Below, one piece after another: positions 1,231 to 59,295 of a stretch of 64,000 nucleotides of DNA. The position numbers were made by a program, and so were the translations under genes. Each line of letters starts with the position of its first letter. Position 1 is the first letter of the stretch. Source of the stretch: Cyanidioschyzon merolae (taxonomy: Eukaryota); the NCBI GenBank assembly GCA_000091205.1, contig AP006498.2; one strand, 5' to 3'. The notes beneath the pieces were generated by a model. The model saw nothing but the letters and a program-made list of their open reading frames with translations. It searched no databases and was not told the DNA's origin.

Positions 1231-2325
1231 TTAGAGAGTGTAGCTCACTTGTGCTGAACACTGTGGCAAATTCCTTTCAAAGACAAACAGCGATCGCTTT
1301 GCGCAGGCCACCTGGTACCCGTGGCCTATTCCGCGGAAACGGGGAGCCAGCGTCACCACCCGGCGCTTCCGCGCCTCAAGTAGTTTCCTACCGATGGCAT
1401 TGTAGATTGTGAGTGTGATCGCTGCGAGCGGTGCGAGGTACATGACTCGCGGAACGGAGCCTTTCATGAGCGTTGCCGGACCCTCCTCTGCAATGATGCG
1501 GCGGAAAGTTGGCAGAATGCCGCGATACGTGCCGTCAGCGCCTTGGGTCATCAGACGGGTCTTCACGACATCTACGGGTGTGAGCATTAAGGCCGCAGTT
1601 GCACCTCCTATTGCGGCTAGGACGAGGTTTTCTTGTCGGTTCGGAGCGCGTTTCTGAATCCGTTCGAAAAGGCGCGACTCTTGGAGGAAAAATAGAAAGG
1701 AAAGCGCGTTCCAAGGAACATCACGAGAAACCGTTGCCCAGTAACCACGATATAGGCCACCGAATCCTTCTTTCTGGAGAATGGTGGGCAGCGCGACCCC
1801 GATGTGAGGATATAGATCCGCCTGGATGCGCTGTTTGAGCACTTCTTGCGGCACTCGAATAAAGGATGCTGCGAAAGCGCCGGCAGCTCCGGAGACCAAA
1901 TCCACCACAACCTGTCGCCAGGCATGATTGCGACCAGAAGACGTAACTTTTGTTGACGCTTGTTTGGTATGCGAAGCTGGCGGCAGTAGCAGCTCGGTGA
2001 GGCGTTGTTTGCACCACTCGTACGCAACGAACTGCACGCCGCCCGCTGGCACCGCGAGAACAACCTGCGGTATCACGCCTTTGATAAACACCCGCGGTGA
2101 CCAGTCTCGACGAACACCCCGGGCCTGAAGTCGGGTACGCACCACATCTATTGGGTGCAGCAGGGTCTGCGCAACACCACGAGCCGAGGACCCTGCCAGC
2201 AACTTCTCCGTAAACGTTAGCTGCGAAAGCGCATCAACGCCAGTGGTCGTAGCAGCTCCGGCGCTGACTGCAATGACAGTTCCAGTTGTCTTCGTAAAGG
2301 CGTTTTTATTCTCTTTTGAACTCAT
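1231..2325 (-). CDS. Mitochondrial carrier family protein, S-adenosylmethionine carrier (SAMC)-like
   Basis: 364-aa ORF that starts at a true ATG (cat at 2323-2325). It has three carrier repeats with the P-x-D/E-x-x-K/R signatures: 'HPIDVVRTRLQ', 'RVPQEVLKQRIQ' (SAMC-like 'RVPTEVVKQRMQ') and 'TPVDVVKTRLM'. After the first and third of these come the usual G/aromatic-rich half-repeats ending in 'YE' ('VQFVAYEW') and 'YN' ('LTIYNAI'); the second is followed by 'GLYRGYWATVSRDVPWNALSFLFFLQ'. Confidence 0.75.
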   Translation of the reverse strand: MSSKENKNAFTKTTGTVIAVSAGAATTTGVDALSQLTFTEKLLAGSSARGVAQTLLHPIDVVRTRLQARGVRRDWSPRVFIKGVIPQVVLAVPAGGVQFVAYEWCKQRLTELLLPPASHTKQASTKVTSSGRNHAWRQVVVDLVSGAAGAFAASFIRVPQEVLKQRIQADLYPHIGVALPTILQKEGFGGLYRGYWATVSRDVPWNALSFLFFLQESRLFERIQKRAPNRQENLVLAAIGGATAALMLTPVDVVKTRLMTQGADGTYRGILPTFRRIIAEEGPATLMKGSVPRVMYLAPLAAITLTIYNAIGRKLLEARKRRVVTLAPRFRGIGHGYQVACAKRSLFVFERNLPQCSAQVSYTL

Positions 2326-2645
2326 GGACGTTGTGCGGTCGAGAGTGAGTTCTGGTGTTGCGTGCCGGAGCGAGGCACTGAATTGAACCTATATCGTTTC
2401 GTCCGGTTAGACGCTGAAGAGTACCCTACAGAGCCTCAGTTCAAGTGAATATCCGGTAATACCTAGTTAAAGAAGGCTCAATCGGTTCCAGTAGACACCT
2501 GTTCGAGAAGAGGGATACAATCCGAGCCAAAACTTACGTTCGTACACGTGTACCACAAGAGACTGTAAAACCGCCTTCGAGCCGATGCTCGTAGCGAGCG
2601 CCGCAGGCCACGGCAACCGTTCTGCGGATCGCAGCTGCTCGCGGC

Positions 2646-3736
2646 GATCACCGGCAGCTCCGGATGGAGAATTTCTGATGAAAAGAAACGAAAAGTCGAT
2701 TATGTAGAATACAGAGGCTCCAAACCAGGGATTCCTCCCTCGTACAATCGTTTTGTTGGTTGAATAGAGCTCGGCAGCTCCGGATGGAGAATTTCTGATG
2801 AAAAGAAACGAAAAGTCGATTACGTAGAATACAGAGGCTCCAAACCAGGGATTCCTCGTCATGCAAATCGTTTTGTCGGTAGAATAGAGCTCGGCAGCTC
2901 CGAATGGAGAATTCCTGATGAAAAGAAACGAAAAGTCGATTACGTAGAATACAGAGGCTCCAAACCAGGGATTCCTCCTTCGTACAATCGTTTTGTTGGT
3001 TGAAAAGAGCTCGGCAGCTCCGGATGGAGAATTCCTGATGAAAAGAAACGAAAAGTCGATTATGTAGAATACAGAGGCTCCAGACCAGGGATTCCTCCTT
3101 CGTACAACCGTTTTGTTGGTTGAAAAGAGCTCGGCAGCTCCGGATGGAGAATTCCTGATGAAAAGAAACGAAAAGTCGATTACGTAGAATACAGAGGCTC
3201 CAAACCAGGGATTCCTCCTTCGTACAATCGTTTTGTTGGTTGAAAAGAGCTCGGCAGCTCCGGATGGAGAATTCCTGATGAAAAGAAACGAAAAGTCGAT
3301 TATGTAGAATACAGAGGCTCCAGACCAGGGATTCCTCCTTCGTACAATCGTTTTGTTGGTTGAAAAGAGCTCGGCAGCTCCGGATGGAGAATTCCTGATG
3401 AAAAGAAACGAAAAGTCGATTACGTAGAATACAGAGGCTCCAAACCAGGGATTCCTCCTTCGTACAACCGTTTTGTTGGTTGAAAAGAGCTCGGCAGCTC
3501 CGGATGGAGAATTCCTGATGAAAAGAAACGAAAAGTCGATTACGTAGAATACAGAGGCTCCAGACCAGGGATTCCTCCTTCGTACAATCGTTTTGTTGGT
3601 TGAAAAGAGCTCGGCAGCTCCGGATGGAGAATTCCTGATGAAAAGAAACGAAAAGTCGATTACGTAGAATACAGAGGCTCCAGACCAGGGATTCCTCCTT
3701 CGTACAACCGTTTTGTTGGTTGAATAGAGCTCGGCT
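2646..3736. repeat. Tandem satellite, 120-bp unit x 9 full copies plus a partial one
   Basis: The unit 'cggcagctccggatggagaatt(t/c)ctgatgaaaagaaacgaaaagtcgatta(t/c)gtagaatacagaggctcca(a/g)accagggattcctcc...caa(t/c)cgttttgttggttgaa(a/t)agagct' starts at 2652, 2772, 2892 and so on up to 3612. Copies are about 93-98% identical and the few variable positions recur in a mixed pattern. Confidence 0.95.
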
Positions 3737-5408
3737 GGTAGTGGCCGAGGCTTGCGGGCGCCCTCACAATGCCAGCTTGGATTGACAATTCGCTGAGCTT
3801 GCCGCCGGTATCTTCAGTGCGCCCACCACTCGTGCATAAAGACGCGCCGGTACGCGGCTCTTTCACAGAGCGTTTGCTTGAGCCGACAACCGACAAGGTT
3901 CCGCATAGCCGCTCCGTCTCTGTGAGACAAACGCCGCAGCGGCGTCGCATAGAATGTTGCAGCGGGCGTTCAGGAAAGGCTCTGCACCCGGAAGATCCGC
4001 GATATGGTATTGACCTGACCATTAGTCTGGAGGCAAGTCTGATCTGTGCTTCGTGTAGCGTACATGGATGGAAGGCGGATTGCTGATCCATTTATCGGTT
4101 ACTAAAAGGCATCGAATATCCAGCCGGATTCTGGTGAGATGCATCGTCCTGGAACCTCCGCAGTGTTGAAGGTTTCGATGCGGCGAGCTCCACTGCTCGA
4201 ATGGAAATCGATTACGGGATCTCTTTGTCTAGACATGTCTCATACACGTTGACGTACATATGCAGTCTATATGCTCTAAAGTTCTCCCATTTTGTTGCGT
4301 GCTTTCGCGATCGACACGTCGGTACTCGTTGGCGCCATTTAAGGCACTAGTCGCACCGGAAGCGCGCATGTCGGCACGAGGGATCCCTGCGGTGGCACGG
4401 CACGAAAACGCCATCACTAGCACTCTGCAGCGTCCCACGTGAAGGCATCTGCATCGAGACGAAAAAAGCGAAAGTTTATTCAAAGGCGAGCGACTGAATC
4501 ATGACTAGAGCAGCTGGATGACAACTCTGTGGTGACAGATCTTCTGGAAGCGACCGTGTCACCGAGAGCCCATTCAAGGCATCCAAAGACAGGTGCAGGT
4601 GATATGCTGTCCAATGACTTGGCCGGCTTCGCGAGGACTCGTGCTCAAGGTTGCATTGCCCGCGCCGCGTTGCCGAGAAACGCTCACAGTCCACAGGATA
4701 CCGAGCGTAAAGCAGGACTTGAAACGGCGATTGTTCGCGACAGAAGATCACAGCCTTGGGTATCAAAAAGACCAATATCGCCGAACGGTATTGCAGAGGA
4801 TGTTCACGTGCGTCTGTTCGCCAGACGATGCCGTGGATGTTTGTGCGCAGCGACCCGCGCAAAATGACAGAAGCGTCAGGGAGCATCCACATTGGTGTCA
4901 GATTGAAATGGAATACCGACCTGCTCGCTCAGTTCGTGGCTTGCGCATCTCTTCTGAAATATTTGCCGATGTACAGCCTCGATACTACAAGTGCAGATAT
5001 ATGGGCTTGCCGAATCATGCGTAGATTTCGGTTTCGTGGTCGTCTAGTCGCAGGAGCTCCCATGCTGCTCTGTCGCTGGAATTCGTGACGTCTCCGATAC
5101 CAAGATCATCATTCGCGACGCCCTCGAGCAGTGCCGCTTAAAGGAACCGATAGCATCATCCACTTCATACCTGCAAGCCTCCACTCGTCTCCTTTTCGTA
5201 TATGTAGCACGCTAAAAATCGAGCATTCTTCAAGTTTTCGATGGATCCGTTCCAAGACACCACTCGTGGACGCAGCGAATCGCGCTTCATGCGGGACGTG
5301 CGGCTCACGCGGACTCTATGCTGCACACTTGGTCTTCATGCTGCGTCGTTTGTGCTTTTATGCACCAGCTCAACAAGGCTCTAAATAGAGACCTGCATTC
5401 TCTGCGGG

Positions 5409-7757
5409 ATGATCTTCAATGTAGAGAATGTCAAGGTTTACTTTCCCTACGACTACGTCTATCCTGAGCAGTACGCGTATATGCGCGAGTTGAAGCGTGC
5501 GCTCGACTCGAATGGGCACTGCATTCTTGAAATGCCGACCGGCACGGGAAAGACGGTGACCCTTTTATCGTTCATCACCTCGTACCAGCTTGCCCACAGA
5601 GAGGTTAGGAAGCTGATCTACTGCACGCGCACTGTTGGAGAACTGGAGAAAGTCCTATCTGAGCTGGAGGTCGTAATCAGGTACCGCGACGCGCAACTTG
5701 AAAAGGCAGGGAAACGCGACCAGGCTGCCGCGGTCTTGGCGGTAGGCCTCACAACTCGACGGAACCTGTGTTTGCAGTCGGCAGTCTCCAAGGCCGAGAG
5801 TCGCGAAGAGGCCGACTCGCTCTGCCGATCACTCACCGCGAGTTGGGTTCGGGAATCTCACTCGGCCGCAATCGCTCGTTTTGAGAAGAACCCCGACCTT
5901 GAAGACCTACCCACCACGCTATGCCAGTTCTACGAGGGCTATCGACGGGAAGGCAACGATGCGATCCTACCTTCGGGGATCTACACGCTCGAGAAGGTAC
6001 TCCAGATCGGTCGAGAGCGGGGCTGGTGCCCCTACTACACGGTTCGACATACCATGAATTTCGCCAATGTGATTGTGTACAATTATCAGTACCTGCTGGA
6101 TCCGAAGATTGCAGGCCTCATTTCGCGAGAACTCTCCCGTGAGTGTATCGTTGTTTTCGACGAGGCACACAATATCGATAATGTCTGCATCGATGCGCTG
6201 AGCGTGAGTCTTCGACTGGACGACCTGCGACGTGCTCAAGCAAACGTTGTAAGCTTGCGCAATCGGATCCAAGAAATTCGAACACATGACGAAAGGCGTC
6301 TCCTTGAGGAATACCGTCGCATCCTACAAGGCATTCGACGGCCCGCGGACGTGGACGCCTTCACAATCGAAGCCTCGCCCGTCATTCCAGAAGATGTTTT
6401 GCAGGAGACCATCCCGGGCAATATCCGACGAGGTGAACACTTTCTCTTGTTTCTGCTTCGATTGATCGATTTCTTCCGACAACGAATGCGATCGACGCAA
6501 GTGACCCAGGATACACCTCGGAATTTCCTCCATGCTCTGATGCCGTCAGTTCAGATCCCTGACTCGAAACCGTTGCGGTTTTGTTCGGATCGGCTTGCGT
6601 CACTGCTGCAAACGCTGGAAATCAGCAATGTTCGCGATTTTGTGTCGCTCCAAAAGCTTGCACACTTTGCAACGCTGCTTGGAACCTATTCGCAGGGCTT
6701 TTCCGTGATCATGGAACCGTACGATGAGCGCGCCCCGAACGTGCCGGATCCTGTCTTGCAATTGAGTTGTCTGGATGCCTCTATCGGGATGCGACCAATT
6801 TTCACCCGTTTCCAGTCGGTGATTCTGACCTCGGGAACGATCTCACCCCTGGATCTCTATGCGCGTATCCTGGGCTTCCGACCTGCGGTCGCACACTCGC
6901 TGAACATATCGCTGCACCGGGCGTCCATTTGTCCGATGGTGATCGCCCGCGGCTCCGACCAGATCGCGATCAGCAGCAAATACGATAGCCGCAGAGATCC
7001 GAGCGTCATTCGCAACTATGGTGCGCTACTGGTCGAGCTGGCCAGCGTCGTACCAGATGGCGTCGTTGGATTTTTCACGAGTTACATTTATCTGGAAAGC
7101 GTCGTGCAGATGTGGCACCAGATGGGAATTATTCAAAAGTTGCTAGAGCACAAGCTCGTCTTCATCGAGACGCCGGACATTTTTGAGAGTTCGGTTGCGC
7201 TGGAGAACTACCGACGAGCTTGTGATAGCGGCCGAGGAGCGATCTTTCTCTGCGTTGCTCGGGGAAAAGTTGCTGAAGGAATCGATTTTGACCGACACTA
7301 TGGGCGCTGCGTCGTCATAATCGGCGTGCCGTTCCAGTACACAGAAAGTCGTGTCCTGCGCGCTCGGCTGGAGTTTCTTCGCGAGCACCTGCAGATACGC
7401 GAGGGTGACTTTTTAACGTTTGACGCGATGCGACAGGCTGCGCAATGCATGGGACGGGTTATCCGTTCTAAAGTGGATTACGGACTCATGATTCTGGCAG
7501 ATCGTCGCTATAATCGGGCGCAGAATCGGAGCAAACTGCCGCTATGGATTCAGAGCCATCTCGATGAGGGCAAAGTGGACCTCAGCACCGACATGGCGTT
7601 GGGTATCATTCAAGAGTTTCTGATCCGAATGGCGCAGCCGCTGGATCGGAAGGAAATGATCGGGACAACGCTGCTTCGTGAGATCGATCTGCAGGCGCCT
7701 GGGGACACCAGTTTTTCGGAGACCGCATCGCCAATAGCGCTCATGGGATCCGCTTGA
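5409..7757 (+). CDS. XPD: TFIIH/NER DNA helicase XPD (ERCC2/RAD3)
   Basis: 782-aa ORF starting at an ATG. Walker A 'EMPTGTGKTVTLLS', DEAH box 'VVFDEAHNIDN', and four Fe-S cluster cysteines in the expected spacing ('NLCLQS', 'SLCRSL', 'TLCQFY', 'GWCPYY'). The N-terminus 'VYFPYDYVYPEQYAYM' and the C-terminal helicase domain 2 'GRCVVIIGVPF' match XPD along the whole length. Confidence 0.9.
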   Translation: MIFNVENVKVYFPYDYVYPEQYAYMRELKRALDSNGHCILEMPTGTGKTVTLLSFITSYQLAHREVRKLIYCTRTVGELEKVLSELEVVIRYRDAQLEKAGKRDQAAAVLAVGLTTRRNLCLQSAVSKAESREEADSLCRSLTASWVRESHSAAIARFEKNPDLEDLPTTLCQFYEGYRREGNDAILPSGIYTLEKVLQIGRERGWCPYYTVRHTMNFANVIVYNYQYLLDPKIAGLISRELSRECIVVFDEAHNIDNVCIDALSVSLRLDDLRRAQANVVSLRNRIQEIRTHDERRLLEEYRRILQGIRRPADVDAFTIEASPVIPEDVLQETIPGNIRRGEHFLLFLLRLIDFFRQRMRSTQVTQDTPRNFLHALMPSVQIPDSKPLRFCSDRLASLLQTLEISNVRDFVSLQKLAHFATLLGTYSQGFSVIMEPYDERAPNVPDPVLQLSCLDASIGMRPIFTRFQSVILTSGTISPLDLYARILGFRPAVAHSLNISLHRASICPMVIARGSDQIAISSKYDSRRDPSVIRNYGALLVELASVVPDGVVGFFTSYIYLESVVQMWHQMGIIQKLLEHKLVFIETPDIFESSVALENYRRACDSGRGAIFLCVARGKVAEGIDFDRHYGRCVVIIGVPFQYTESRVLRARLEFLREHLQIREGDFLTFDAMRQAAQCMGRVIRSKVDYGLMILADRRYNRAQNRSKLPLWIQSHLDEGKVDLSTDMALGIIQEFLIRMAQPLDRKEMIGTTLLREIDLQAPGDTSFSETASPIALMGSA

Positions 7758-15948: not shown

Positions 15949-18900
15949 TGCGATAAGCTCGTTGAACAGAAGAGACTTGTTTCTTGAAACGAATTGCGTA
16001 TGCGTCACGCACTTTGCGTGATCGTTGCAGCGTAAATTTTTAGCGTCAGACTTGTAACGTACGCTTCCGTTGGCAGCGTCAACCGGAACGTCGAATTCCA
16101 ACGAGAACGACTCCGTTCGATAACCAGCGCACTTTCGTCTTGAATGAGGTTACCTGTCCTTCACGAAATGAAGACGAAGCTGTTCAGTACGCCAGTCGCG
16201 CTGGACGTCCTCGAACTGACTGCGTTTTGCTGCGGTCTGTGAACACCAGATGCACGCGTCACCCACAAACACACACGAAGAGTGATGTTCAGGTCAAGCG
16301 CCGCTGGTACAGTGATCGATGCGCGGACGCCGTCATGCCCCGCCGTGTCGCCGTTTTTCGGGTGATCCGCGGATGGCGTCGCTGGAGGGTATGTCCGTCT
16401 ATATATGTCGCATTTGTTTTGTTTCATCGAACGTAGACACAGCGGAGACCAGCGATCCCCGATTGCGGGATGCGCTCCGGCATTCGGGAAAGCATCCATC
16501 ATGCTTCACACTACGTTCAAGTTCCTCTACCGATACGTTCCCCTCGAGGGTACTGGTTATTGCTCAAGTTCTATCGTGCGCCGAGTGTGTGCCTCGGGCG
16601 CCCGCGTTCGCGTCCATAGCGCCAGTGCGGATACAAGGTGACGACAGAAAAGCTTTTCCGTACGGGGATCGGATGATGGCATCGCATGCCATGGCAGAGC
16701 ATCGCTCGGGTCGCTGATGGGCATTCTCAATGCTGGAGATCCATTATGGTGGAGCTAGAACTTTGGCAGGTCCGTCGTTCAATTCCAATCTGGAGGCTGG
16801 TAAAGCGCTCACTGGGTCTAGGGAGAGCGCGATGAAGCATATGCGTCGGAGGCTAGCGAAGTGGATGGAATCCCCGTGTAAGACGAGTCTCTCCCTAGCG
16901 TGCGAGCAATGCGGTCAAGCGCGTCGCCATATGCCTCTGGAATCCACTTGCCGCAGAGCGTGGGACGTGAATCTGGCGTGGATTTCGTGAAAATCACCGG
17001 AAAACCGGATGCAATGATGTATCTAGAGTTTTGCCCTGATCTGCACCACCTGCATGACGCGTACAGGTGCGCACCGATCTCAGCGTTCACATGCGAGGCG
17101 GGCTACGTGCTGCGCATCCTGCAAACAGGGCAGAGGTGCAGCGAGAAGTCGCTGCTTGTGGTCTTTTGTCGCTGATGGGATAACGCATGTGCAACATGCT
17201 TGCTTGACGCGTCGCTTTCCGTGCAGCACGCAAATCGAACGAGCTCTACTTGGCATCGCATTCACGTACATACGTGGTCCGTACCGAGCGGTGGAAACGT
17301 GGAATGTCTCTGTTTCATGATGCTGCTCAATACAGCGATGCGCTGCCTCGGATCCTTGAGAAGCACCTGGGCACTCGACGCACTTGCGGCATCGCCATAT
17401 CACCTCCAGACAAGTATGTGATGTTCTGGAAGCATGTTTTCGGGTTGTGACGGGCGCAAAGTCATGGTCATGGGACGCAACAGGCACATCTTTTCCGCAA
17501 TTTGCGTGATATCATTGAAGAAGAAATCATAAGGAAAACGAGTCTGTTGGGCGCTGACGAGGCGTGGTGCTCGCGGCCCCAGCGACAGTGGCTTGGGACT
17601 CGTTTAGGGTAGTCTTGCATCCAAGCCAGTCACTTGTTTTCGCAAGTTTCAGATATATCATGAAATGTCGAGAAACTTGCTCCAGCACTGCGTGAAGCGT
17701 CGCACACCGGCCGCACGAAAAGCATCCGCTCTGGACGTTAGCCCTGCGGGCTATGCCCGTGTCTGATAAAAATTAGAAGCTGAAACGCTCGCCCTCCCCT
17801 GTCTTGCCATTTTTTCGAACTTTATTTTAGATCTTCACACTCGACATTCCAAGACCAGTAATTCGAGCTTACCGTGCTCGTACGTAATTTTAAGTGTTCT
17901 CGGTCGTGGTTTCCAAGTGGCCCCTCGCCGCGGTGCCGCTGGGATTCGTTGCGTCATCCGAATCAAGATGATTCGCGACGCGTTCGAACCAGGGTCCGTA
18001 AACTAAGTGATATCATCATCCAGTCCATGCCTGCAAGCCTCTACGCTGCTCCTTTCCTCGTGTATAGCATCGCCACATAAAGTATTCTTCATTGTTTCAA
18101 TGCTTCTTTTCCAGGGTAACTCGTGTGCGCAGAAATTCGCGTCGCTGGATTGAAATGCGAAAAAGTACTCGAGGTCGAGCCTTATCATCTTGTTCACAGG
18201 CTGATGCCGAGCGTTTAATGAATTTGCCACGTCAAGTAATCGATTCCGATCGAAAGACGGATGGTCCTCTCCTGGTGGCTGCCAACGAAAGAGAATTCCA
18301 CCATAGAAGCACGATGCTTCTTACAGAACATGCCCCTATAGGCGCCCGTCTCTTCTGTTTATATGGATAAGGGTCTTGGGCTCGTAGATAAGTCCCGGCA
18401 GCGATCGCTTTGAGTGGAGCGTGCGTCACCGCTTTGAATGAAAGGAGTGTATACCGGGCGGAATTTCTCGACTTGTTCTGTAGCCTGGATTTTTCGTTCG
18501 ATGCTTATTTCATGAAAGACAGCATCGTGCACCAAAAATCCCGTGTCAAATGGAACAACATGTGTTTGTGTATGCAGCGGACAGCGTACTCGCCCAGTGA
18601 ATAGCCTAGAAAAAAATCCGTGATCCTAAGCGACGGCGTCGGGCGAGGAAACAGAAGAGTGCATCGAAAGGAGCCTTCTGCACCCTTCGAGGGCATGCAC
18701 TGAGTGATGAAACATGTATCCCCATGGCATAATATGCGCCCGCGGAAGAAAGCGTTTGGTTATAGACGTGGCGGAGCAGCCGAACACAGCCCGGTGTCAC
18801 CGCTCCGAAGCGCGCACCGATGCAGCATACAAAGAAGATGAAAAGGGTAAACTATACGTGGATCGCAACTTCCGCCTGTACATCAAATGCAGCGGCAACA

Positions 18901-22729: not shown

Positions 22730-23099
22730 CTCGAGCCCGCACCTGAGTGTCTCCGTATCCCACGCCTTGCGTAAAAGAGTCACCACAGCAGGTAGTGGTA
22801 GTGGTGGTGGATATCGAACTCGGAGAATGTTATCCGCCGTTGGCAGGGGTGCGCTGGTAGCCGCCCCAAGAACGCATACTTCAACAACTCGTTGGACTAC
22901 ATCGAGCGTAGCGCATAAACAGCGCGCCTGTCAGCCTCCAAGAGTAACGTATGACAACGCTGCTCCAGAGCGGCTGCCTGCACGGTTCCGAAACTGCCCT
23001 GCAAACCTGTCTGTTTTTCTTCCACGGCGTCCCGCAACGCCTGCATCCGCGCCTTGCCGATGACACTGTATGCGGCAGGTCCCTGTTCCGGCCTGTACC

Positions 23100-23228
23100 G
23101 TGAAACGCCTGACGTGTCCAGTGGATGCGTGCGGATGGCGGACGCCTACCGCGATGCGTGGCGCTGCGTGAAACGCGTGACGTGTCCAGTGGATGCGTGC
23201 GGATGGCGGACGCCTGCCGCGATGCGCA
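23100..23228. repeat. Tandem duplication, about 68-bp period x 2
   Basis: 'gtgaaacgc(c/g)tgacgtgtccagtggatgcgtgcggatggcggacgcct(a/g)ccgcgatgcg' occurs at 23100 and again at 23168. Confidence 0.8.
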
Positions 23229-29869: not shown

Positions 29870-32736
29870 TGCGATAGCGCTGTATTTCAAGTTGAATCCC
29901 GCGCAGGGTTTGTTTCAGTAATCCTTAGATTGTGGAAGCTTGCGGGGCGCTTCTGCCCAGAAAACAGAATTTTCCAGGAAGAAGAATTTTTCTCTTGAAC
30001 ACGGCCACACTGTCTGTGCCGCGGTTTCGCGACGCGCACGTGCATCTCTCGCGCCGCATTATTGGTGCATCTGACAGCGGATCGGCGGGGATTGTTTGCC
30101 GCGCCCTGAGCTGGACGAGCGCTGGAAGAGTCGAAATTTTGCAATGCGGTGATGGCGGGAGTGCGGTTGCGGCGTTTCGGGCGCATTTGCCACAGCGGCA
30201 TCGCGAGAGAATCGTCGAAGAGCTCCGAGCCCATGAGGGACGCATGAGACGGTGGAGGGTGTTTCGATTGTAAGACGCTACACGAAGATTCTACGAGCGT
30301 ATGGTTACGCAAAGCAGGGAGCGTTGCTGTTTTCTAGGGTCGTACGATCTAACGTTACACGCCCTAAGGGATACACGGCAGCAATTGATTGGATAAACAA
30401 GTTGTATTGGTACACTGCGTGACTCTGGTCTCGCGTTATGCACAACGTTCCCTAAGATATATCCGTGTTGATAACGTCTACCACAGATACTTTCACCCTG
30501 CGAGCACAGCAGCGTGCAGAGGCCTGATGGAGTGAACCTTTCGGGTGCGATGCACGGGACACAGTGCCTCACCGCTGCGTTACGACGGCCGGCTCTTAGC
30601 TGAAAGAGGAAGCTCGAGTTCCTTCTCTGCGAACGCCGTATTGGAAGCACCGCGGGACGAACGATACTTGCACAAAACACTGTATGGACAAGAGCACCGC
30701 AGGCGGACTACACTGGCTCCGAGCGCTCGGCTGGAGGCGAGCTCGTGGTTCTTCCGAGTGCTGCGTCGCGGCGAGAGGCCTCCAGAAGCGACGCGCGCTC
30801 GCAGCGACGACTGCCTCGAGCTGATGCCCGCCAGATAGTTGCCAGCCCAGTCAGCCTCCGGGCGAGCAAAGCGGCAGCTACGCATCCAGGGTCGGAGGGT
30901 GCGTCTGCTGTAGGCTCGGTACCGAGAGGAACGACGCCCATATCAGAAAAAATGGAACGGGACGACGAACTCTGGTGAACACAGAAAAGTTTGTGTGTCT
31001 TCTTATTGCCAACAAAAACATCTTTTGCAGGCTTTTCTAAGACTGTTTCCTCTTTCTCTGTTGTCTCTGGTTTTAACTGGGCCGCTCTCTGCTTTCCCTG
31101 CAGCACGGTTTTCAGGAATTGTTGGGTGATGATGGTAGCGTTCCAGGTCACTATTTCCCCGCATCCGAGTGTTTTCTACGCATTTGACGTGGAGCCGGAA
31201 GTTGCGATGTATGCTTCGCCTTCCATGTTATTCTTTTTTCTGAACAGTCACCGTGGGCGATGCCCATCAGCGACATTTGACTTTGCTCAGGTGATCCCAT
31301 ACGTCCACCATGCTTCCTCGTCCTCCAAGTGCAGCCCTGTCGCGCATAAACGCTTGCTTTATCGCTCCGTGCGTGCCCCTTTCTGGCACACCAGGTCCCG
31401 ATCGATGCATTCCTCCGTTTCCGCGCCCGGTACCATATCCCATTATCAAGCGCTTCTTCGGTGCGATCTCCTCGGCGAGTGCGCTGTTCGTTGCATGCAG
31501 ATGCGCATGCTATCCCAGCCGATAGACGATAATTCGAAAGCGACATTCTCCATGATGAAACAAGTACCGGAAGGAAAATCAAGACTGGAGACGGTCTAGA
31601 AAATTTCGACCGGTCTACGCTTCCTTCACGGAAAGCGGTGACGCACTATCAACTGCAAGCGATCGCTGCGATGATTCAAGTCCAAGATCAAGGGCCTTTT
31701 CCATGGAAAGACAAGATACAGGAGCCCCTGGGTGCACATCCCACGAGAGGTATTACGCTGCTGTCGAGTGCCGCACGTTTAAAACCCTCAAAGAGAGGAG
31801 GATTCGGCTTTCAAACAGAATAGATTACTTGACCTGACAAGTTCAGTAAACGCTCGGCATGAGCTTGTGAACAAGTCGCCAAAGGACAGCGTCGAGATTA
31901 TGTGCTGTCGCCAGTTCAGCATCCCGCAGTACTGCCTCAACAATTTGCCGTGAGACCAAAGGAATCGAAAGCTTGAAGAATGCTTGATTTGAGCATGCTA
32001 CACTTAAGAAGCAAGATGCGTCGAGGCTTGGACGAATGAACGGGATGAGGTTATCGTTTATTTTACGAACGCTCGCTCGAAGGCAAAGGGAATCCTCTCT
32101 ACTCTTGTCAAATAACGAACTTCCGCGGCAAACTGTCGAAAAGGGCCACTCCGGAAACACCACCGTGAATCCTAAAACGACGCATGAGTCCACGAGCACC
32201 TATTGCCGCAATTAGAAAGCAGTGGCTGTATATCTCAAAATGTTAGAAAACATATCAAAAGGCAGGGACGGAGCGAACGGTTCAGTGTTCCGTTTTAAGC
32301 TGACACGGCGATATGTCGCTGGGTCAAACCTCAGCTCGCGACCAGAAGACTGCACGGGAGCCCCTGAGACGGACAGGCGTCTGCTGGAGCACGACGGTCT
32401 CGTTACGTGCCTTCGACAGCGCCAAGGCATCGCTGCCATCTGGTCAGCTTCGTCGATCTAATACCAAAAAGAGACAGCGACACTGATTCCATACATGTTT
32501 GCCTTCTCATGCACCCGTGCGGATACAATAACGCTGTAGTGCATCTGCCTTGCGTATACGTGGCAGGCACAAAAGTCTCAGCGCCGCTTCCAGCGCGCTG
32601 TAATGTGTGGTGGCTGTTGCGTCGCCCGTCGTCGGTGGCGGTCGATCCCGCAGCCGCTATCTCGCGGTCAAGCGAATGCTAAGCCTGGACCTTGTAGGAG
32701 CGTGGCGTCGTTTTTTCAAGTGAGGGAACGCGTTTG

Positions 32737-35980: not shown

Positions 35981-36185
35981 CAAAACAATGCACCGAAAAC
36001 GATCGCGTGATGGAAAAGCAACCTGGGAGAGGAGGCGCACATGCCGAAAACAATGCACCGAAAACAATCGCATGATGATAAACCTCCCCAAGAAAGGAGG
36101 CACACGTGCCGAAAACAATTTACCCAAAGCGATCGCGTGATCATAGACCTCCCCAAGAAGGAAGGCACACGTGCGCAATGCTGCC
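35981..36185. repeat. Tandem repeat, about 65-bp unit x 3
   Basis: Three successive copies of 'cgaaaacaatgcaccgaaaac(g/a)atcgc(g/a)tgatg...cc(t/c)ccccaagaa(a)gga(a)ggc(g)cacatgc'. Confidence 0.7.
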
Positions 36186-39205: not shown

Positions 39206-41381
39206 GCGCTCCAGTTGCAAATGCTTCTGGCGGCACAGTCGAGACGCTGCGGTCGGCAGTACAGTAGTGGCGAGAAACCCGCCGTAAACACGACGTCTGC
39301 CACTGACGTGCAGACGCCTCCCAGCCTTTCTCGACCGGCACCCACTACTGCTTCCAACTTCTTCTCATATAATTCCACTTTTAGAGGTTGTCCAATAAAG
39401 TTCACTCTTGTGGACCTTCGGGGTCTTTTCTCGAGCACTGCAGATCTTACATTGATCGCAGCATTGAAGTCACGATTCACAAACTCAATCCGTTTCTTTC
39501 CGTTGGTTGTACGTACTAATGCAAGTAGTCCACGAACTTTCGCCATCTTTTTCATTTGCTCTTCCGTCAGCGGTCCGTATTTTTTTATATCCTCAGGGTT
39601 CCGCTGACACTTTTCCATCTCCACTCTCTGAAGTGTACAACCCAGTTCATGGTGTGTATAAGACGTTCGAAACTCATCTATCGGTATCATAACGAAACGC
39701 CGTGTACACTCCTTGTACGTTCTTGTCGTTGGAGCTGGCGTAGTTCCTTTTTGGGTCTTCCAACGCCCTGCTCAGTATGCCACAACGAGCCTCTGACTTT
39801 GATCCTCTTTGAAGGCACTCAACTGATTGAAAAATTCGCGAATGCACGCTGCTTACCACAGTATAGCTTCATTCGCAAACGAGCCCACCGGGGCTTTGTA
39901 TACTCCTCCCACAGCGGCTTCCAGTGAGCAACAGGAACTTCCATGATTTTCCGAAAAGCATCAAAGTCCGCTCCTCGGCTCGTCACCTCGCTCAAAGTTT
40001 CCAGGTGCTCTTTCATTCCTGAATTGCAAGTCTCGATGTTCTTCGTCGTATTCAATATACGGGATTCTCGGTAATATCTCGCTCTCGAGAACCTCAACAG
40101 ACGCATGTCTTTCTGAAGTAAGTTGCCGTCAGTACGAGCTTCCGCACTCCTGGGTACTGCGATGGTAATGATGTTAGTGCTCCCGGGGTCCGCGCCAACG
40201 ACAAAGTCGTTATCCTGCACTTTCTGTGTGGCAGGATCCGAATCCTTCTTTTCATCATGCTTCGCCGCGTCAACGACATGGTCGTTATCCTGCACCTCCT
40301 GTGTCGCAGGATCCGCCTCCTTCTCATATTCATGGTTCGCCGAGGGCGGAACTGGACGACCTTTCTTCAACAGCCGATAGTTTACACACTAGGCTACTCC
40401 ATCGGTTTCGATGATCCCAGTGAATACCTTTTGCTTGCTCACTTTGAGACGTTTGAAATCGAAGATATTCTTCCAGTGCGTCTCCCGGTTTTCACCGGAG
40501 AATTCCTCCCTGTTGACACTGAACTCCGGACTGATCTCCTTCATGATGCCGTGAAGGATTCTGGAGTCGATAGTCATAAAAAGTGACTTGATGTTGCACA
40601 TTGGAACCATGTTGAACCGCTTCCCCATTAGGACAGCCTTCCGTCTCTCCCACTCTTCATTGCTTTCCTCACTCAGCTTCATCTCTGCCTTGGGATCGAG
40701 CTCTCGGTCCAAAAACAGGAAATAGCGCAGGACGAGGCGATAGTATCTTTCCTTATCTTTTTTCAACTCTGATACGTTCTCTGCTGGATTCGCAAACCCT
40801 AGTACCGCACGATGCTCTTGTATAACCGCACGCATTACAGAAGCTTCATTCGTGAACTAGTTTGACGCTTTCTTGTCAACGAATTCGACCTCATCTTCAC
40901 GCTTACGATCTTTCGTGACGCCATTGATAATCGCACATTTCCCATTGCGAGATAGGCCCAGGTAGAGTGCAACCACGGCGCGTATCATGAAACGTTCGAG
41001 GTTCGTTGTCAAATGGTTCTTCAGGTTCGTGATGCACTTCATCGCCCCATAGTCGTAAATATCCCGGTCACCCCTGTATCAAATACCGTTGGAGATGTAA
41101 AAGGAGTATTTTTGGCAGAGGGCGTGCACTCGCTCATTTTCCGTCCGCGTTCCCCCTGTGCCAAGCATCAGGTGACGAATAAAGGTCGTGTCGAACAACT
41201 CGTCTGGAACCTCGACTGTTTCCATGTGCGTCACGTCTTCATACATCTCCCTCGCCAAATGCATCAGTCCTGACGACGCCTTGACAAAACTCTTGGAGTA
41301 CGAATCGACACGGTTTCTGATAGCGTCTCGCAACTTTTCCTTGTACGGATTTTTGATATGTTTAAGAAGACCGGCTTTCAC
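39160..41381 (-). mobile_element. Decayed TnpB/Fanzor-like (OMEGA-family RuvC nuclease) gene, most complete copy of a dispersed family
   Basis: Five consecutive minus-strand ORFs in shifting frames: 41079-41381, 40857-41042, 40389-40835, 39819-40370 and 39160-39690. Together they carry a RuvC-I-like '[17 protein letters not shown]', the zinc-finger-region block 'IPIDEFRTSYTHHELGCTLQRVEMEKC', and RuvC-III 'IEFVNRDFNAAINVRSAV'. The interval is visibly AT-richer than the neighbouring genes. Three further fragments of the family occur in the window. Confidence 0.55.
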
Positions 41382-42511
41382 CCCCGTCTCGTCGCACAGT
41401 TGTCTTTCGCGCAGCTTTTGACGTCGGGCCTACCCCTTTTGCTTCTACTTCTTTTCCTGCTCTTCTGGACTCGGATTTTTTTTTGTTTTTTTCTGGCAGC
41501 CGGCGACACTGGGCCTCCAGGATCGTCGACTAGCTTTTTCATAACTCTCCTTTTTTAGTTTTTTTAAAAAGAACGCTCTTTGAACCCTTCTGTTATGTAC
41601 TGCGAAAAAGCACTTGACTAGACTTGTTTGAGGGTTGAAACATAATTGATCTGAAAACTATACTTTGCTACGACTTAAAAGCAAATGCAACTTGTACGTT
41701 AGAACAACAAGTCGACGAATGATCATGATCGCGTTTCCATGCAAAGGCGAGTTGCACGCCGTATCTCTTGCGGCCCTGATCTCCAAGAAGCGCTATCCAC
41801 CGCACTATTTAGAAAAAAGAACATAAACCAACCCCTAACTAGCAACGAAATAATAATTTCTTTCCGTCTCTACTGTAAACGATAAAAGGGCGAAAAGATT
41901 TCCATATTGTGGAAAGTTTAGCTTGTCTGCGGAAGGTCCCTCGAGCCAGACGAGTCTGCAAGCCTGGTGCCCGGTGTGCCTCTAACGTGGCTGATGCCGC
42001 TGCAATGCCTGCGTATCTCGTCTCCAAAGCGGCTTATTCTGGGACTAGAGGCAGTTATGCTGCGTCTGGACGTCATCCTGTTCGCGGTGGACTCCTAGTA
42101 TGTTGATTCGCGCTGCCGCAGGCAGTACGTATGTCTGCGCAGCTTGCTGGCTCCCAGAGTCATTATGCACTCGGAGTCCAAGTCAGCTGAACGACGCTTC
42201 GAGCCAATGCCCTCACTGGTATGGCAAAGCTATTTTGTCTCTATGATGCATCCGCTCCAGTAGTTTAGGCACTACGGCGGGTGCTCACGGTAGGTACTCG
42301 GCGCAAGTTAGAACGCACGAAACGACCAGTATATCCGAGAGGACGTATGGGTAATGGAACGTTAAGGCGGGGTACAGCACGATGGACACTTTTTCGATAA
42401 CCAATATTCATCCTGCAATCTGGGATCCATGGCCAATGTACGCGAATTATGTCATCGAAAAAAATTGGACATGCGCCCGCCATCGGCCTTGTGGCTCTCC
42501 TGATGGCAATG

Positions 42512-42680
42512 TCGCCTCTATGGGATACTACAATCGATGCTCGCCTCTATAGGATACTACAATCGATACTCGCCTATATGGGATACTACAATCGATACTC
42601 GCCTCTATGGGATACTACAATCGATACTCGCATCTGATGATGCTACAGTCGATGTGCGCCTCTGATGATGCCGTGCACGC
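42512..42680. repeat. Tandem repeat, 29-bp unit x about 5.5
   Basis: 'tcgcctctatgggatactacaatcgat(g/a)c' repeats at 42512, 42541, 42570 and 42599, then degenerates into 'tcgcatctgatgatgctacagtcgatgtgcgcctctgatgatgc'. Confidence 0.8.
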
Positions 42681-47173: not shown

Positions 47174-47915
47174 CCGTATTCCGGAAGCGGCGCGACGACT
47201 GTTGGGTACGCATGCCCCAATGCATCCCTCGCGGGATCTTTGTACAGCATCCAGTCTGCAGGGCATACGACGCAATCGCCAGCCCTGCATCATGGTCGAT
47301 TTCCTCGTGGTTGTAAACGACCGCAAGCCATACAGCATGCGCTTTGCTTGTTGCCTGGAAAGCGATCATCGCTACGATATCCACCGGCATGCAGGGTAAG
47401 CGCTGTGCGAGCTCGCCGTAAAGTGCTCCACCCCAGCGCCAATCGTCTCATATGTTTCATTCTGGAGCACAAGGCGCCGTCCTCAACGGATATGAGCGTC
47501 GTGCACCTCTGGACAACGCCGGGCATGGTAGAGGATCGAAACGTTCCGCGACATGCGGCGGCATGAGCGGAACGCGATTGTGGATCCCGCGTACTCGACG
47601 ACCTCTGGAAAGCGTTGTGAACCCAGGCACTTGGTGGAAACGATGCATAAGGTCGCTGGATTCCGTGGTGTTCAGCAAGATTAGCTCTGTCACATGTCAA
47701 TCATCTTTGAATGCGACGAGCTGCGTGCTGGAGCGCCCACAGGCACCCGGCGCAACGTATCCGGTACACGATGTTGCCATGGGTGACGTCCCCTGGTGTA
47801 AACAATGCACGAGCCGCATCACTGCTGCATAAAGACTAGCCGGTGGAGAAGGTGAAGCTCCGGTTGCTCGATGAATCAAAGCCCAAGGCGAGATGCAGCC
47901 AACGCAATCAATAAA

Positions 47916-48192
47916 GTGATGCTCACCGCACGAAAGAAACCCATTCGGTATCAGACGCATAATTGAGTAGACTTGTATGGATTGTCCGTACAGTGACGCT
48001 CACCGCATGGAACAAACCCATGCGGTATCAGACGCATGATTGAGTAGACTTGTATGGATTGTCCGTACAGTGATGCACACCGCACGAAAGAAACCCATGC
48101 GGTATCAGACGCATAATTGAGTAGACTTGTATGAATTGTCCGTACAGTGATGCTCACCGCACGAAACGAACCCATGCATTATCAGACGCATG
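47916..48192. repeat. Tandem repeat, 77-bp unit x about 3.6
   Basis: 'gtga(t/c)gc(t/a)caccgca(c/t)g(a/g)aa(g/c)aaacccat(g/t)cggtatcagacgcat(a/g)attgagtagacttgtatg(g/a)attgtccgtaca' begins at 47916, 47992, 48069 and 48146. A (CGT)7 run follows at about 48229-48250. Confidence 0.85.
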
Positions 48193-48644
48193 ATTGACTT
48201 GAATGCCCGCACCGCTTCGTGTGTAAAGCGTCGTCGTCGTCGTCGTCGACTCGGGCAGCTTCATGCGGATTCACGCTTGGCGGGCTGGTTCGAGTCTCGA
48301 CCGCAAGATCGTCTAGAGCAAACGCGCTTGCTGGCAGCCATTGGTCTTTCAACGATGCCGTTGTACCCAAGCGCCTCTATCAGAAACCTTCACAAGAGAT
48401 ATTGTAAACACCCCGTAGTGCCCTGCTCGGTCACGCACGAACCCGAATCGCAGGCACATCATCTCCGTCTCAAGCGAGCAGCATACCTCAGCAAACGCGA
48501 TGAAGATCGCCTGCTTGCAGCGCTTCACAGTAAGCTTTCCACGACTTTGTCGAATAAGCCAACACCTGGTCACGAAAAGCGGCATCATCGGCAATGGTGA
48601 CGCAAAGCGCGCTCGGTCGTAAACAAGTGCAAACGTGACTCTAT

Positions 48645-57603: not shown

Positions 57604-59295
57604 ATGGTTCGCGAGCCAACCTTCGTGCCCTGTCACCTGAAAAGTGCTCGAACGCGTTTCGTCCACGCGTGTGCTCTTGGAGTTTGTGAGCGAGCGACAA
57701 CGCGACATGGCGCACAGCTATCGATTCGCAAAGCACGAGTGAGCGGGCACAGCGCGCCCGCAACGCACCTGCGGCACCGAGGCGGCACCCGGGACCTCGT
57801 TGCTCGCAGTTTTGGAGAGCCACCCTTCGAAGGCGACCTCGACTCGGAACGAGACTGGAAAGCGGCAGCCAACTACGATGCACCGGCGCCGAGCGCAGTC
57901 TCTCCGTGTTTTCCACTACTAGACTGGCAGGTGCCGTCTCTGCGTGCAGCTGAGGAGCGCTGGCTCGCCGAGGAAGTCCGTCTTTGGTTAGACCGAGAAT
58001 GGGAGCCGCTTGCAGCACACCGGGAGATAGGTGAAAAAGCTGCGAAAGCGGCACTTGACGCACGCATGGCGTTAGAGGGTAGCGGCAGGACCGCCAAGTT
58101 CGGTGAAGTTCTCATCACTGTTGCCTCTGAACTGGAGCGCGGCCCGAATCACCAGGTGGGTCGCGACTCCTGGAGAGAAGCCTATGTGAATCCCTTTGAT
58201 GTCGCCAACAAAGTAAGTGACCTGTACATGGTCCGGTATTTTGTAGAAACGGAACTTACTGCACCTGCGGAGGACGAGTCCGACGCGACGGACATCGATT
58301 CGAGCTGGACCGCGCTACCCCTCTCGGACACCTGTCGTTGCACTTGTCTGGATTATGAAGATATTTTGGCGATTCAAAAGCGGGCACGAGATCTGGGCCT
58401 CTCCGTTGGCCGGATCGCTTACGATAAATCGCGCCTCGGCGGTCAGGCGCAAGTGCGAAAGAACCGCACGGATACTGGGGCATCACCAACTGGAAGCAGC
58501 GTCTACGAGCGCAGCTATGCTGCAGACCATGTGGACAAAACGATACAAAGCTTTGACGATGTAATGTACCGGGAGCGAGTCCTCTATGAAGCTCTGAGAA
58601 CTAAGCGTCTCGTTCAGGAGCGAGGTCTGTATGGCGATTTTGCGCTGGGATGCAACGAAGAATACGTGAAGGCGGCGTTTCCATCAGACAAGGTCTGGGG
58701 CTGGGACCCCGACCCACACCAGCAATCGGATGCGAGACCACCATCAATGCCGATCGAGTCGACACCGTTTGATGGCATCGTGGGCTCCATTCGCGATGTT
58801 CACCCCTTCGATAGGCATGTTTTCTTTATGGGAACGCTCTACGGCGATATCCCGAGCGTAGTCGTGAATCGCGTGGTCTCCGAGACCGCACGCTTAGCAA
58901 ATCATACCATGCTGCTCCATCATGATTTTGACGTAGAAGCATTATTACGCGGGGTAGATGGCACCGATGCGATCGTTGACCAGCTGAATGGGTTATCGGT
59001 TGAGGTCGCATTTCGGGCGCTGCGCCCAGCACCGGCTGCAGCGACGTCTCAAGGCGATTCCGCCGCAGCGGAAGCGCACATGGCGGGAACGCAGTCTGAT
59101 GCAGGCACGCATGCAGCAGACGCGGATGCAGATGCAGAGCTGCGGATGCAAATTCAACGCGATCTTGATCTGCTCATCGAGACGCTGTATGGTGAGGTGG
59201 CTGCTCAGGTAGCGCTCCAAGAGAAGGATCGGAGTTTCCGAGTACGTTCCGCAATCGTACGGTACTTGGCTGCTTTCACTTGGGGTACACCCTGA
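57604..59295 (+). CDS. Hypothetical protein (563 aa)
   Basis: Long uninterrupted ORF from an ATG, with sense-frame codon bias, an Arg/His-rich N-terminus and an acidic Ala/Asp-rich C-terminal tail. I recognise no domain. Confidence 0.4.
   Translation: MVREPTFVPCHLKSARTRFVHACALGVCERATTRHGAQLSIRKARVSGHSAPATHLRHRGGTRDLVARSFGEPPFEGDLDSERDWKAAANYDAPAPSAVSPCFPLLDWQVPSLRAAEERWLAEEVRLWLDREWEPLAAHREIGEKAAKAALDARMALEGSGRTAKFGEVLITVASELERGPNHQVGRDSWREAYVNPFDVANKVSDLYMVRYFVETELTAPAEDESDATDIDSSWTALPLSDTCRCTCLDYEDILAIQKRARDLGLSVGRIAYDKSRLGGQAQVRKNRTDTGASPTGSSVYERSYAADHVDKTIQSFDDVMYRERVLYEALRTKRLVQERGLYGDFALGCNEEYVKAAFPSDKVWGWDPDPHQQSDARPPSMPIESTPFDGIVGSIRDVHPFDRHVFFMGTLYGDIPSVVVNRVVSETARLANHTMLLHHDFDVEALLRGVDGTDAIVDQLNGLSVEVAFRALRPAPAAATSQGDSAAAEAHMAGTQSDAGTHAADADADAELRMQIQRDLDLLIETLYGEVAAQVALQEKDRSFRVRSAIVRYLAAFTWGTP

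Follow-up and report, generated by a model that had tools for sequence, protein, structure and literature searches.

The genome of Cyanidioschyzon merolae has been public since 2004-2007 and is reputed to be almost free of repeats. How, then, is a tandem array of nine 120-bp units to be read that stands between two divergent genes of this organism: as a genome-wide satellite of centromeres or chromosome ends, as an element acting on the neighboring promoter, or as a repeat that belongs to this one place? We addressed this question in a stretch of 64,000 nucleotides of contig AP006498.2 (assembly GCA_000091205.1), here called the window, and in the assemblies of related strains and genera. We find the array to be a young minisatellite within a long spacer between genes and, as such, an ordinary member of a well-known class; that it is also selectively neutral and specific to its locus is, in our view, the probable reading by a wide measure. 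A literature search returned no paper describing this array or C. merolae minisatellites.

Structure of the array

Tandem Repeats Finder (TRF) placed a tandem array at window positions 2652-3735, with a period of 120, 9.0 copies, 96% matches, 0% indels and a score of 1998. The tandem array of the original prediction, which had been made from the letters alone, is therefore real. Of the extent given there (2646-3736), the start has to be moved: bases 2646-2651 do not match the 120-bp unit, and the array begins at 2652. Cut in register from this position, it consists of nine full head-to-tail units and a 4-nt partial unit, CGGC, after which unique sequence follows. One 23-mer of the unit is invariant and occurs nine times vs zero occurrences expected in shuffles. 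The GC content of the array is 45.5%, compared with 54% in its flanks and 55% in the whole window, and the lowest-GC 1-kb stretch of the window (45.4%) is the array itself.

All four recurring variable sites named beforehand were present, at unit columns 52 (C/T, tacg/tatg), 72 (A/G, caaacc/cagacc), 97 (T/C, caatcg/caaccg) and 114 (A/T, gaaaag/gaatag); columns 12 and 23 vary as well. The variable sites are mostly transitions, and the change from tacg to tatg falls on a CpG. Each of the nine copies carries its own combination of variants. The copies had been described as homogenized, and this agrees with the core of the array, where copies 3-9 differ pairwise by 1-4 nt. The distance to these core copies is 4-5 nt for copy 1 and 11-14 nt for copy 2, which contains an 8-nt variant cluster (CGTCATGCA) at columns 87-94. 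The last copy has the edge variant gaatag. At column 72, A and G take turns through copies 3-8, leading to a weak 240-bp dimer periodicity, and identity within copies 3-9 amounts to 0.990 at lag 240, 0.978 at lag 120 and 0.981 at lag 360.

Genomic setting

The array fills about one third of a spacer of 3,083 bp (3.08 kb) between the divergent, intron-less genes for a SAM carrier and the helicase XPD/ERCC2 (Table 1). It lies 326 bp from the carrier ATG (2325, minus strand), close to the distance of ~320 bp given originally; its distance to the XPD ATG is 1,673 bp. The neighbor had been called a SAM carrier, and it is truly a member of SLC25: the protein BAM81720 is named "similar to solute carrier protein", and the JGI annotation reads SLC25 "S-adenosylmethionine transporter 26".

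Both flanking ORFs are exact matches to C. merolae 10D proteins located on one record of 908,485 bp. A length of 908,485 bp is that of C. merolae chromosome 16, which contains 261 protein-coding genes (Nozaki et al. 2007, PMC1955436). Cluster look-ups of the neighbors gave the 10D gene order BAM81714 (coatomer gamma), BAM81715 (Sen1-like helicase), BAM81716 (a 770-aa protein), BAM81717 (ferredoxin-thioredoxin reductase variable chain, FTR), BAM81718 (CMP061C), BAM81719 (DUF202 protein), BAM81720 (carrier) and BAM81721 (XPD). The array is near CMP061C, at about gene 61-64 of the 261 when the coordinate is taken from the order of the accessions, and therefore it is located in the interior of chromosome 16.

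Table 1. Features around the 120-bp array and further minisatellites in the 64,000-nucleotide window
Feature	Position	Strand	Basis
Mitochondrial carrier gene, BAM81720 / XP_005537756, SLC25 SAM-transporter-like, 364 aa, no intron	1231..2325	-	Exact match to 10D protein
Unique spacer from array to carrier ATG; probably 5' UTR and core promoter of the carrier	2326..2651	-	Contig ends; putative transcript ends
Whole minisatellite	2652..3735	.	TRF, copies in register, GC
Diverged left-edge copies 1 and 2	2652..2891	.	Pairwise mismatch matrix; ATG of copy 2 at 2862
Homogenized core, copies 3-9	2892..3731	.	1-4 nt differences between copies; A/G alternation at column 72; lag identity
Unique right-hand spacer to XPD ATG; no Pfam-matching ORF; 4906-5286 repeated elsewhere	3736..5408	.	
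XPD/ERCC2 helicase gene, BAM81721, divergent from carrier gene	5409..7757	+	Exact match to 10D protein
Minisatellite, period 68 bp	23099-23226		TRF
Minisatellite, period 65 bp	35982-36174		TRF
Minisatellite, period 75 bp	40190-40342		TRF
Minisatellite, period 29 bp	42512-42671		TRF
Minisatellite, period 77 bp	47915-48197		TRF
Minisatellite, period 22 bp	58717-58758		TRF

The unit at a single locus

If up to three mismatches are allowed, the 23-mer is present in the 64-kb window only in the nine array copies, and a BLAST search of the whole spacer against the window gave no match for the array part. The JGI metagenomes hold Cyanidioschyzon genomes about 99% identical to that of 10D, assembled in contigs that reach 86 kb. 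A single pass through their contigs with the exact 23-mer found it in six only, all of them collinear with the array locus and containing its left flank, its right flank or both. The statement that the unit is specific to its locus hence covers the 64-kb window and, by means of one exact 23-mer, the metagenome assemblies of near-identical strains. As these near-identical genomes are represented by contigs of such length, a second array or a contig of pure satellite would be expected to be visible among them.

Strains and relatives

The ~99%-identical strains have one left junction in common (…GGCGATCAC/CGGCAGC…, the slash marking the array boundary) and one right junction (…GAGCT/CGGCTGGTAG…), and between these identical boundaries the variants of the unit differ by strain. 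At column 12, every assembled copy of the loci L018, L021 and L025 has A, and 8 of the 9 copies of strain 10D, which is of Italian origin, have G. An odd unit with the motif CATGCA is copy 2 in 10D, stands first in L018 and beside the last copy in L021, and is absent from L011. Variants that are specific to a strain and common to the copies within it point to concerted evolution.

Syntenic loci were found in Cyanidiococcus yangmingshanensis (L028), with a carrier 82% identical and a spacer of 1,296 bp between XPD and carrier, and in an intermediate relative (L027), whose carrier is 86% identical over the part called. The gene order around the XPD-carrier spacer is conserved in both. Neither of the two syntenic spacers contains a tandem repeat, which restricts the array to the C. 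merolae lineage. We also looked in the two orthologous spacers for a single "proto-unit", and they showed no detectable similarity to the 10D spacer.

A minisatellite and its proposed maintenance by exchange

Minisatellites or VNTRs are intergenic tandem arrays of 0.1-20 kb with units of about 10-100+ bp, recognized in practice by their length polymorphism. The array resembles them in its head-to-tail arrangement and exact register, with a unit in the range of tens of bp to ~100+ bp, in its single locus in the window and the JGI metagenomes, and in being non-coding by the Rfam, tRNA, folding, ORF, Pfam and protein-cluster checks described below. It shares with them, furthermore, a homogenized interior with degenerate edges, interspersed variants and a composition that differs by strain. 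A unit of 120 bp is long for a minisatellite, near the top of the usual range.

For its origin, we propose that 120 bp of non-coding spacer became duplicated, possibly by microhomology or slippage; the array ends in the partial unit mentioned above. Unequal sister-chromatid exchange or gene conversion, in part in a two-unit (240-bp) register, would then have enlarged the array and kept it uniform, so that central copies would be homogenized by exchange and edge copies left to diverge. Several observations suggest unequal exchange or gene conversion: the exact register, the diverged edges around a homogenized core, the higher identity at lag 240 than at lag 120, the strain-specific variants common to copies, and the absence of the array from the sister genera. 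Recent unequal exchange among two or three kinds of unit, as had been proposed from the sequence alone, fits the lag identities, the diverged edges and the variants of the strains. The array is most likely selectively neutral, and its sole plausible effect would be a passive one, in that about 1.1 kb of AT-richer DNA is placed upstream of the SAM-carrier gene and the distance to XPD is increased. Its length counts against neutrality: the array is the largest minisatellite of the window, and its 1,084 bp are several times the length of the others (128-283 bp).

These other minisatellites are six in number (Table 1), with 1.9-5.2 copies each, and all lie between long ORFs, from which coordinates we read them as intergenic. 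Elsewhere in L027 we found minisatellites of 71 bp x 4.9, 78 bp x 2.1 and 37 bp x 2.8. The 120-mer is similar neither to the six other units of the window nor to the three of L027, and the six window units are unrelated to one another, too. With roughly one array per 9 kb in the window, and with different ones in L027, minisatellites are evidently a common feature of the spacers in these genomes, and one with fast turnover. Thus, even the "simplest" free-living eukaryotic genome has fast-evolving intergenic minisatellites. For the typing of strains in C. merolae populations, the array could be used as a VNTR marker, and it offers a cheap test case for the relation of a promoter-proximal minisatellite to its neighbor gene in an organism with efficient homologous recombination.

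Position relative to transcript ends and regulatory readings

Numerous independent contigs from the JGI series 33000503xx-33000549xx and from Logan runs have recurrent end positions around the starts of the carrier and XPD genes. Upstream of the carrier ATG, seven contigs begin at a distance of exactly 146 nt (window ~2471) and several further ones at 259-266 nt (~2584-2591), while on the XPD side contigs begin 54-90 nt upstream of the XPD ATG (~5319-5355). Provided that the samples are metatranscriptomes, these recurrent ends likely mark transcript 5' ends; the array would then be part of neither mRNA, with some 60-180 bp between it and the carrier start sites downstream. Other contigs, broken by the repeat itself, reach 11-223 bp into the array. 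In one sequence (L019), the GC-rich positions 1-269 are unrelated to the locus and joined to it at window position 2516, probably through a chimeric assembly.

From its position, an effect of the array on the SAM-carrier promoter is possible. It could be cis-regulatory, with nine copies of protein-binding sites that activate, repress or insulate within the spacer shared by the SAM carrier and XPD. The short distance to the carrier ATG and to the probable 5' ends would suit such a role, as would the fact that the strains of ~99% identity, which come from different samples, have all retained the array within the same boundaries, and each unit offers the palindromes TACGTA, GAATTC, TCCGGA and GAGCTC as candidate sites. 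However, palindromic hexamers should turn up by chance about 1.9 times per 120 bp, so that four are unremarkable, and one of the variable sites breaks TACGTA in three of the nine copies. Moreover, the same spacer lacks the array in Cyanidiococcus and in L027, where both of these conserved, housekeeping-type genes manage without it. We therefore regard a cis-regulatory array as unlikely.

Somewhat more doubtful still is a functional chromatin element specific to the lineage, e.g., a binding platform with multiple sites or a boundary that sets SAM-carrier expression, with a copy number varying among hot-spring populations; the CENH3-binding core of chromosome 16 would be a less likely form of it. 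Proteins may conceivably bind the array at a 120-bp periodicity. The C. merolae CENH3 regions, as summarized from Kanesaki et al. (2015) in 10.1101/096016, are comparable to the array spacer in its length of about 3 kb and its GC content below the genome average, but this spacer, at about 51% GC, has a conspicuous repeat as its dominant feature. The genes CMP05x/06x are not listed in H3K27me3 supplements.

RNA-coding potential

Some other protists have their small-RNA genes in tandem clusters, and each unit of the array contains a CTGATGA, read from the unit sequence, that resembles a C box. One small-RNA gene per 120-bp unit, snoRNA-like or of another type, would accordingly be conceivable, yet we hold such a cluster to be very improbable. 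No Rfam family reached the gathering score in the whole window, and at E<=10 the region 2400-4000 gave chance-level matches only, such as Pseudomon-groES (E 1.2) and U6atac (E 2.4), with best E-values of about 1-2.6. The unit has a single CTGA and lacks a second one that could act as a D box. Folded as RNA from either strand and in two registers, the unit was no more stable than dinucleotide shuffles (z -0.5 to +0.8). Transcript-like contigs end before they reach the array from either side, and conservation of the array is limited to one species lineage. ARAGORN found no tRNA in the window. A scan for bacterial-type promoters and terminators, a type of scan that is not relevant to a eukaryote, gave counts equal to those of shuffles.

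A centromeric or subtelomeric satellite as a rival reading

The original prediction had considered a genome-wide satellite at centromeres or subtelomeres, and had itself set against this the case of a unit confined to the present array. Within the window and the near-identical JGI metagenome genomes the unit was indeed found at this locus only, and we consider a satellite marking a centromere or subtelomere to be extremely unlikely. Plant and animal satellites of this kind share with the array the tandem structure, a composition AT-richer than the surroundings and some dimer periodicity. They are characterized by arrays of great length and/or a unit present at many loci, whereas here nine copies (1.1 kb) occupy one interior locus between two expressed housekeeping-type genes, with no further copy in the window or the JGI metagenomes, and the sister genera lack them.

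A location at a chromosome end is excluded by the CMP061C region, the gene order BAM81714-81721 and the absence of the telomere repeat AATGGGGGG from the 64-kb window; subtelomeric elements of C. merolae extend over at most ~20 kb (PMC1955436). For a centromere, the low GC of the array would be in favor, since C. merolae centromeres are low-GC. They are summarized in 10.1101/096016, after Kanesaki et al. (2015), as low-GC regions of 2-3 kb with a mean of 48.4% and "no other apparent pattern", a description that does not suit a conspicuous repeat, and the weighted mean of the whole 3.08-kb spacer, about 51% GC, is above the centromere mean given in that summary.

Protein-coding potential

As the unit length is a multiple of 3, a frame that is open in one unit stays open throughout the array. 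Two minus-strand frames are free of stops through the array, 2651-3763 (371 codons) and 2470-3813 (448 codons), and the second is in the reading frame of the carrier CDS. A protein-coding tandem repeat would explain both, but there is hardly any likelihood in it. In all strains three in-frame stops lie between the longer frame and the carrier ATG, and within the open frames themselves an ATG exists only in the variant copy 2 (at 2862), being elsewhere or missing in other strains. Two or more open frames also arose in 11.6% of shuffled units, and in the translation of the longer frame each of the four recurrent variable sites alters the encoded residue. An hmmscan search with the translated array (2651-3763, minus strand) returned Skp1 (PF01466) with E = 1.5e-18 and zero individually significant stretches; this score is an inflated sum over nine copies of a weak 14-residue match and a trap for automated annotation. 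No protein homolog of the open frame was found among 5.8 billion protein clusters. We judge the 448-codon frame to be a by-product of a 120-bp (3n) unit on a T/C-rich strand, and the coding reading was rejected on the missing conserved ATG, the three conserved stops, the lack of a homolog and the artifactual Pfam sums. The array encodes neither a protein nor a structured RNA.

Finally, there is next to no chance that the array is an assembly artifact of the 10D reference, with copies over- or under-collapsed: short-read assemblies of related strains do show only 1-3 copies and frequently break at this 1.1-kb array, but collapse, the likely cause, is expected there for 120-bp units of 97-99% identity, the nine copies given by the 10D reference differ in their individual variant combinations, and in independent assemblies at least three different unit variants stand contiguously between the very same boundaries, so that the tandem structure is real.

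Dispersed repeats in and around the window

C. merolae possesses a 253-copy, ~3.2-kb interspersed element that is WSV486-like (Nozaki et al. 2007, PMC1955436). Like this element, the array is repetitive, non-coding DNA of the same genome, and dispersed copies likely lie nearby in the window; unlike it, the array is tandem, and its 120-bp unit is without similarity to the dispersed repeats of the window. The region 39445-42338 (~2.9 kb) is probably one copy of the element. ORFs of >=200 aa are absent from it, and nowhere else in the window is the GC content of 2.5 kb as low (47.2%). The region shares 75% identity with a non-coding sequence that L024/L026 carry directly to the left of the window, between CMP061C and FTR. 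Its GC content resembles that given for C. merolae centromeres in the summary of 10.1101/096016. A paralog of the 770-aa gene was considered for this region as well and ruled out by tblastn.

A second family of dispersed repeats, with members 66-76% identical, is represented in the window at 17966-18667, at 31402-32098 (inverted) and, as a fragment within the spacer just upstream of XPD, at 5071-5284. In L023/L026, the similarity to this family runs on past the point where these sequences diverge from the window.

The metagenome contig Ga0078972_1010819 (16,742 bp) has an exact terminal overlap of 121 bp and assembles as a 16.6-kb circle, which contains the 770-aa gene, FTR, CMP061C, DUF202, the carrier, the array and window positions 3736-5286. 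In three other assemblies, the Sen1-like helicase is joined directly to XPD, with homology to the window from position 4906. These joins concern window 4906-5286 and the loci L001, L002, L006, L011/L026, L018 and L021. The simplest reading of these sequences would be that direct repeats of ~380 bp (window 4906-5286) flank a segment of ~17 kb and give rise to a loop in the assembly graphs; a real deletion or an excised-circle polymorphism of this segment may exist, too. The order helicase, segment, XPD was found in 10D, L018, L021 and Cyanidiococcus.
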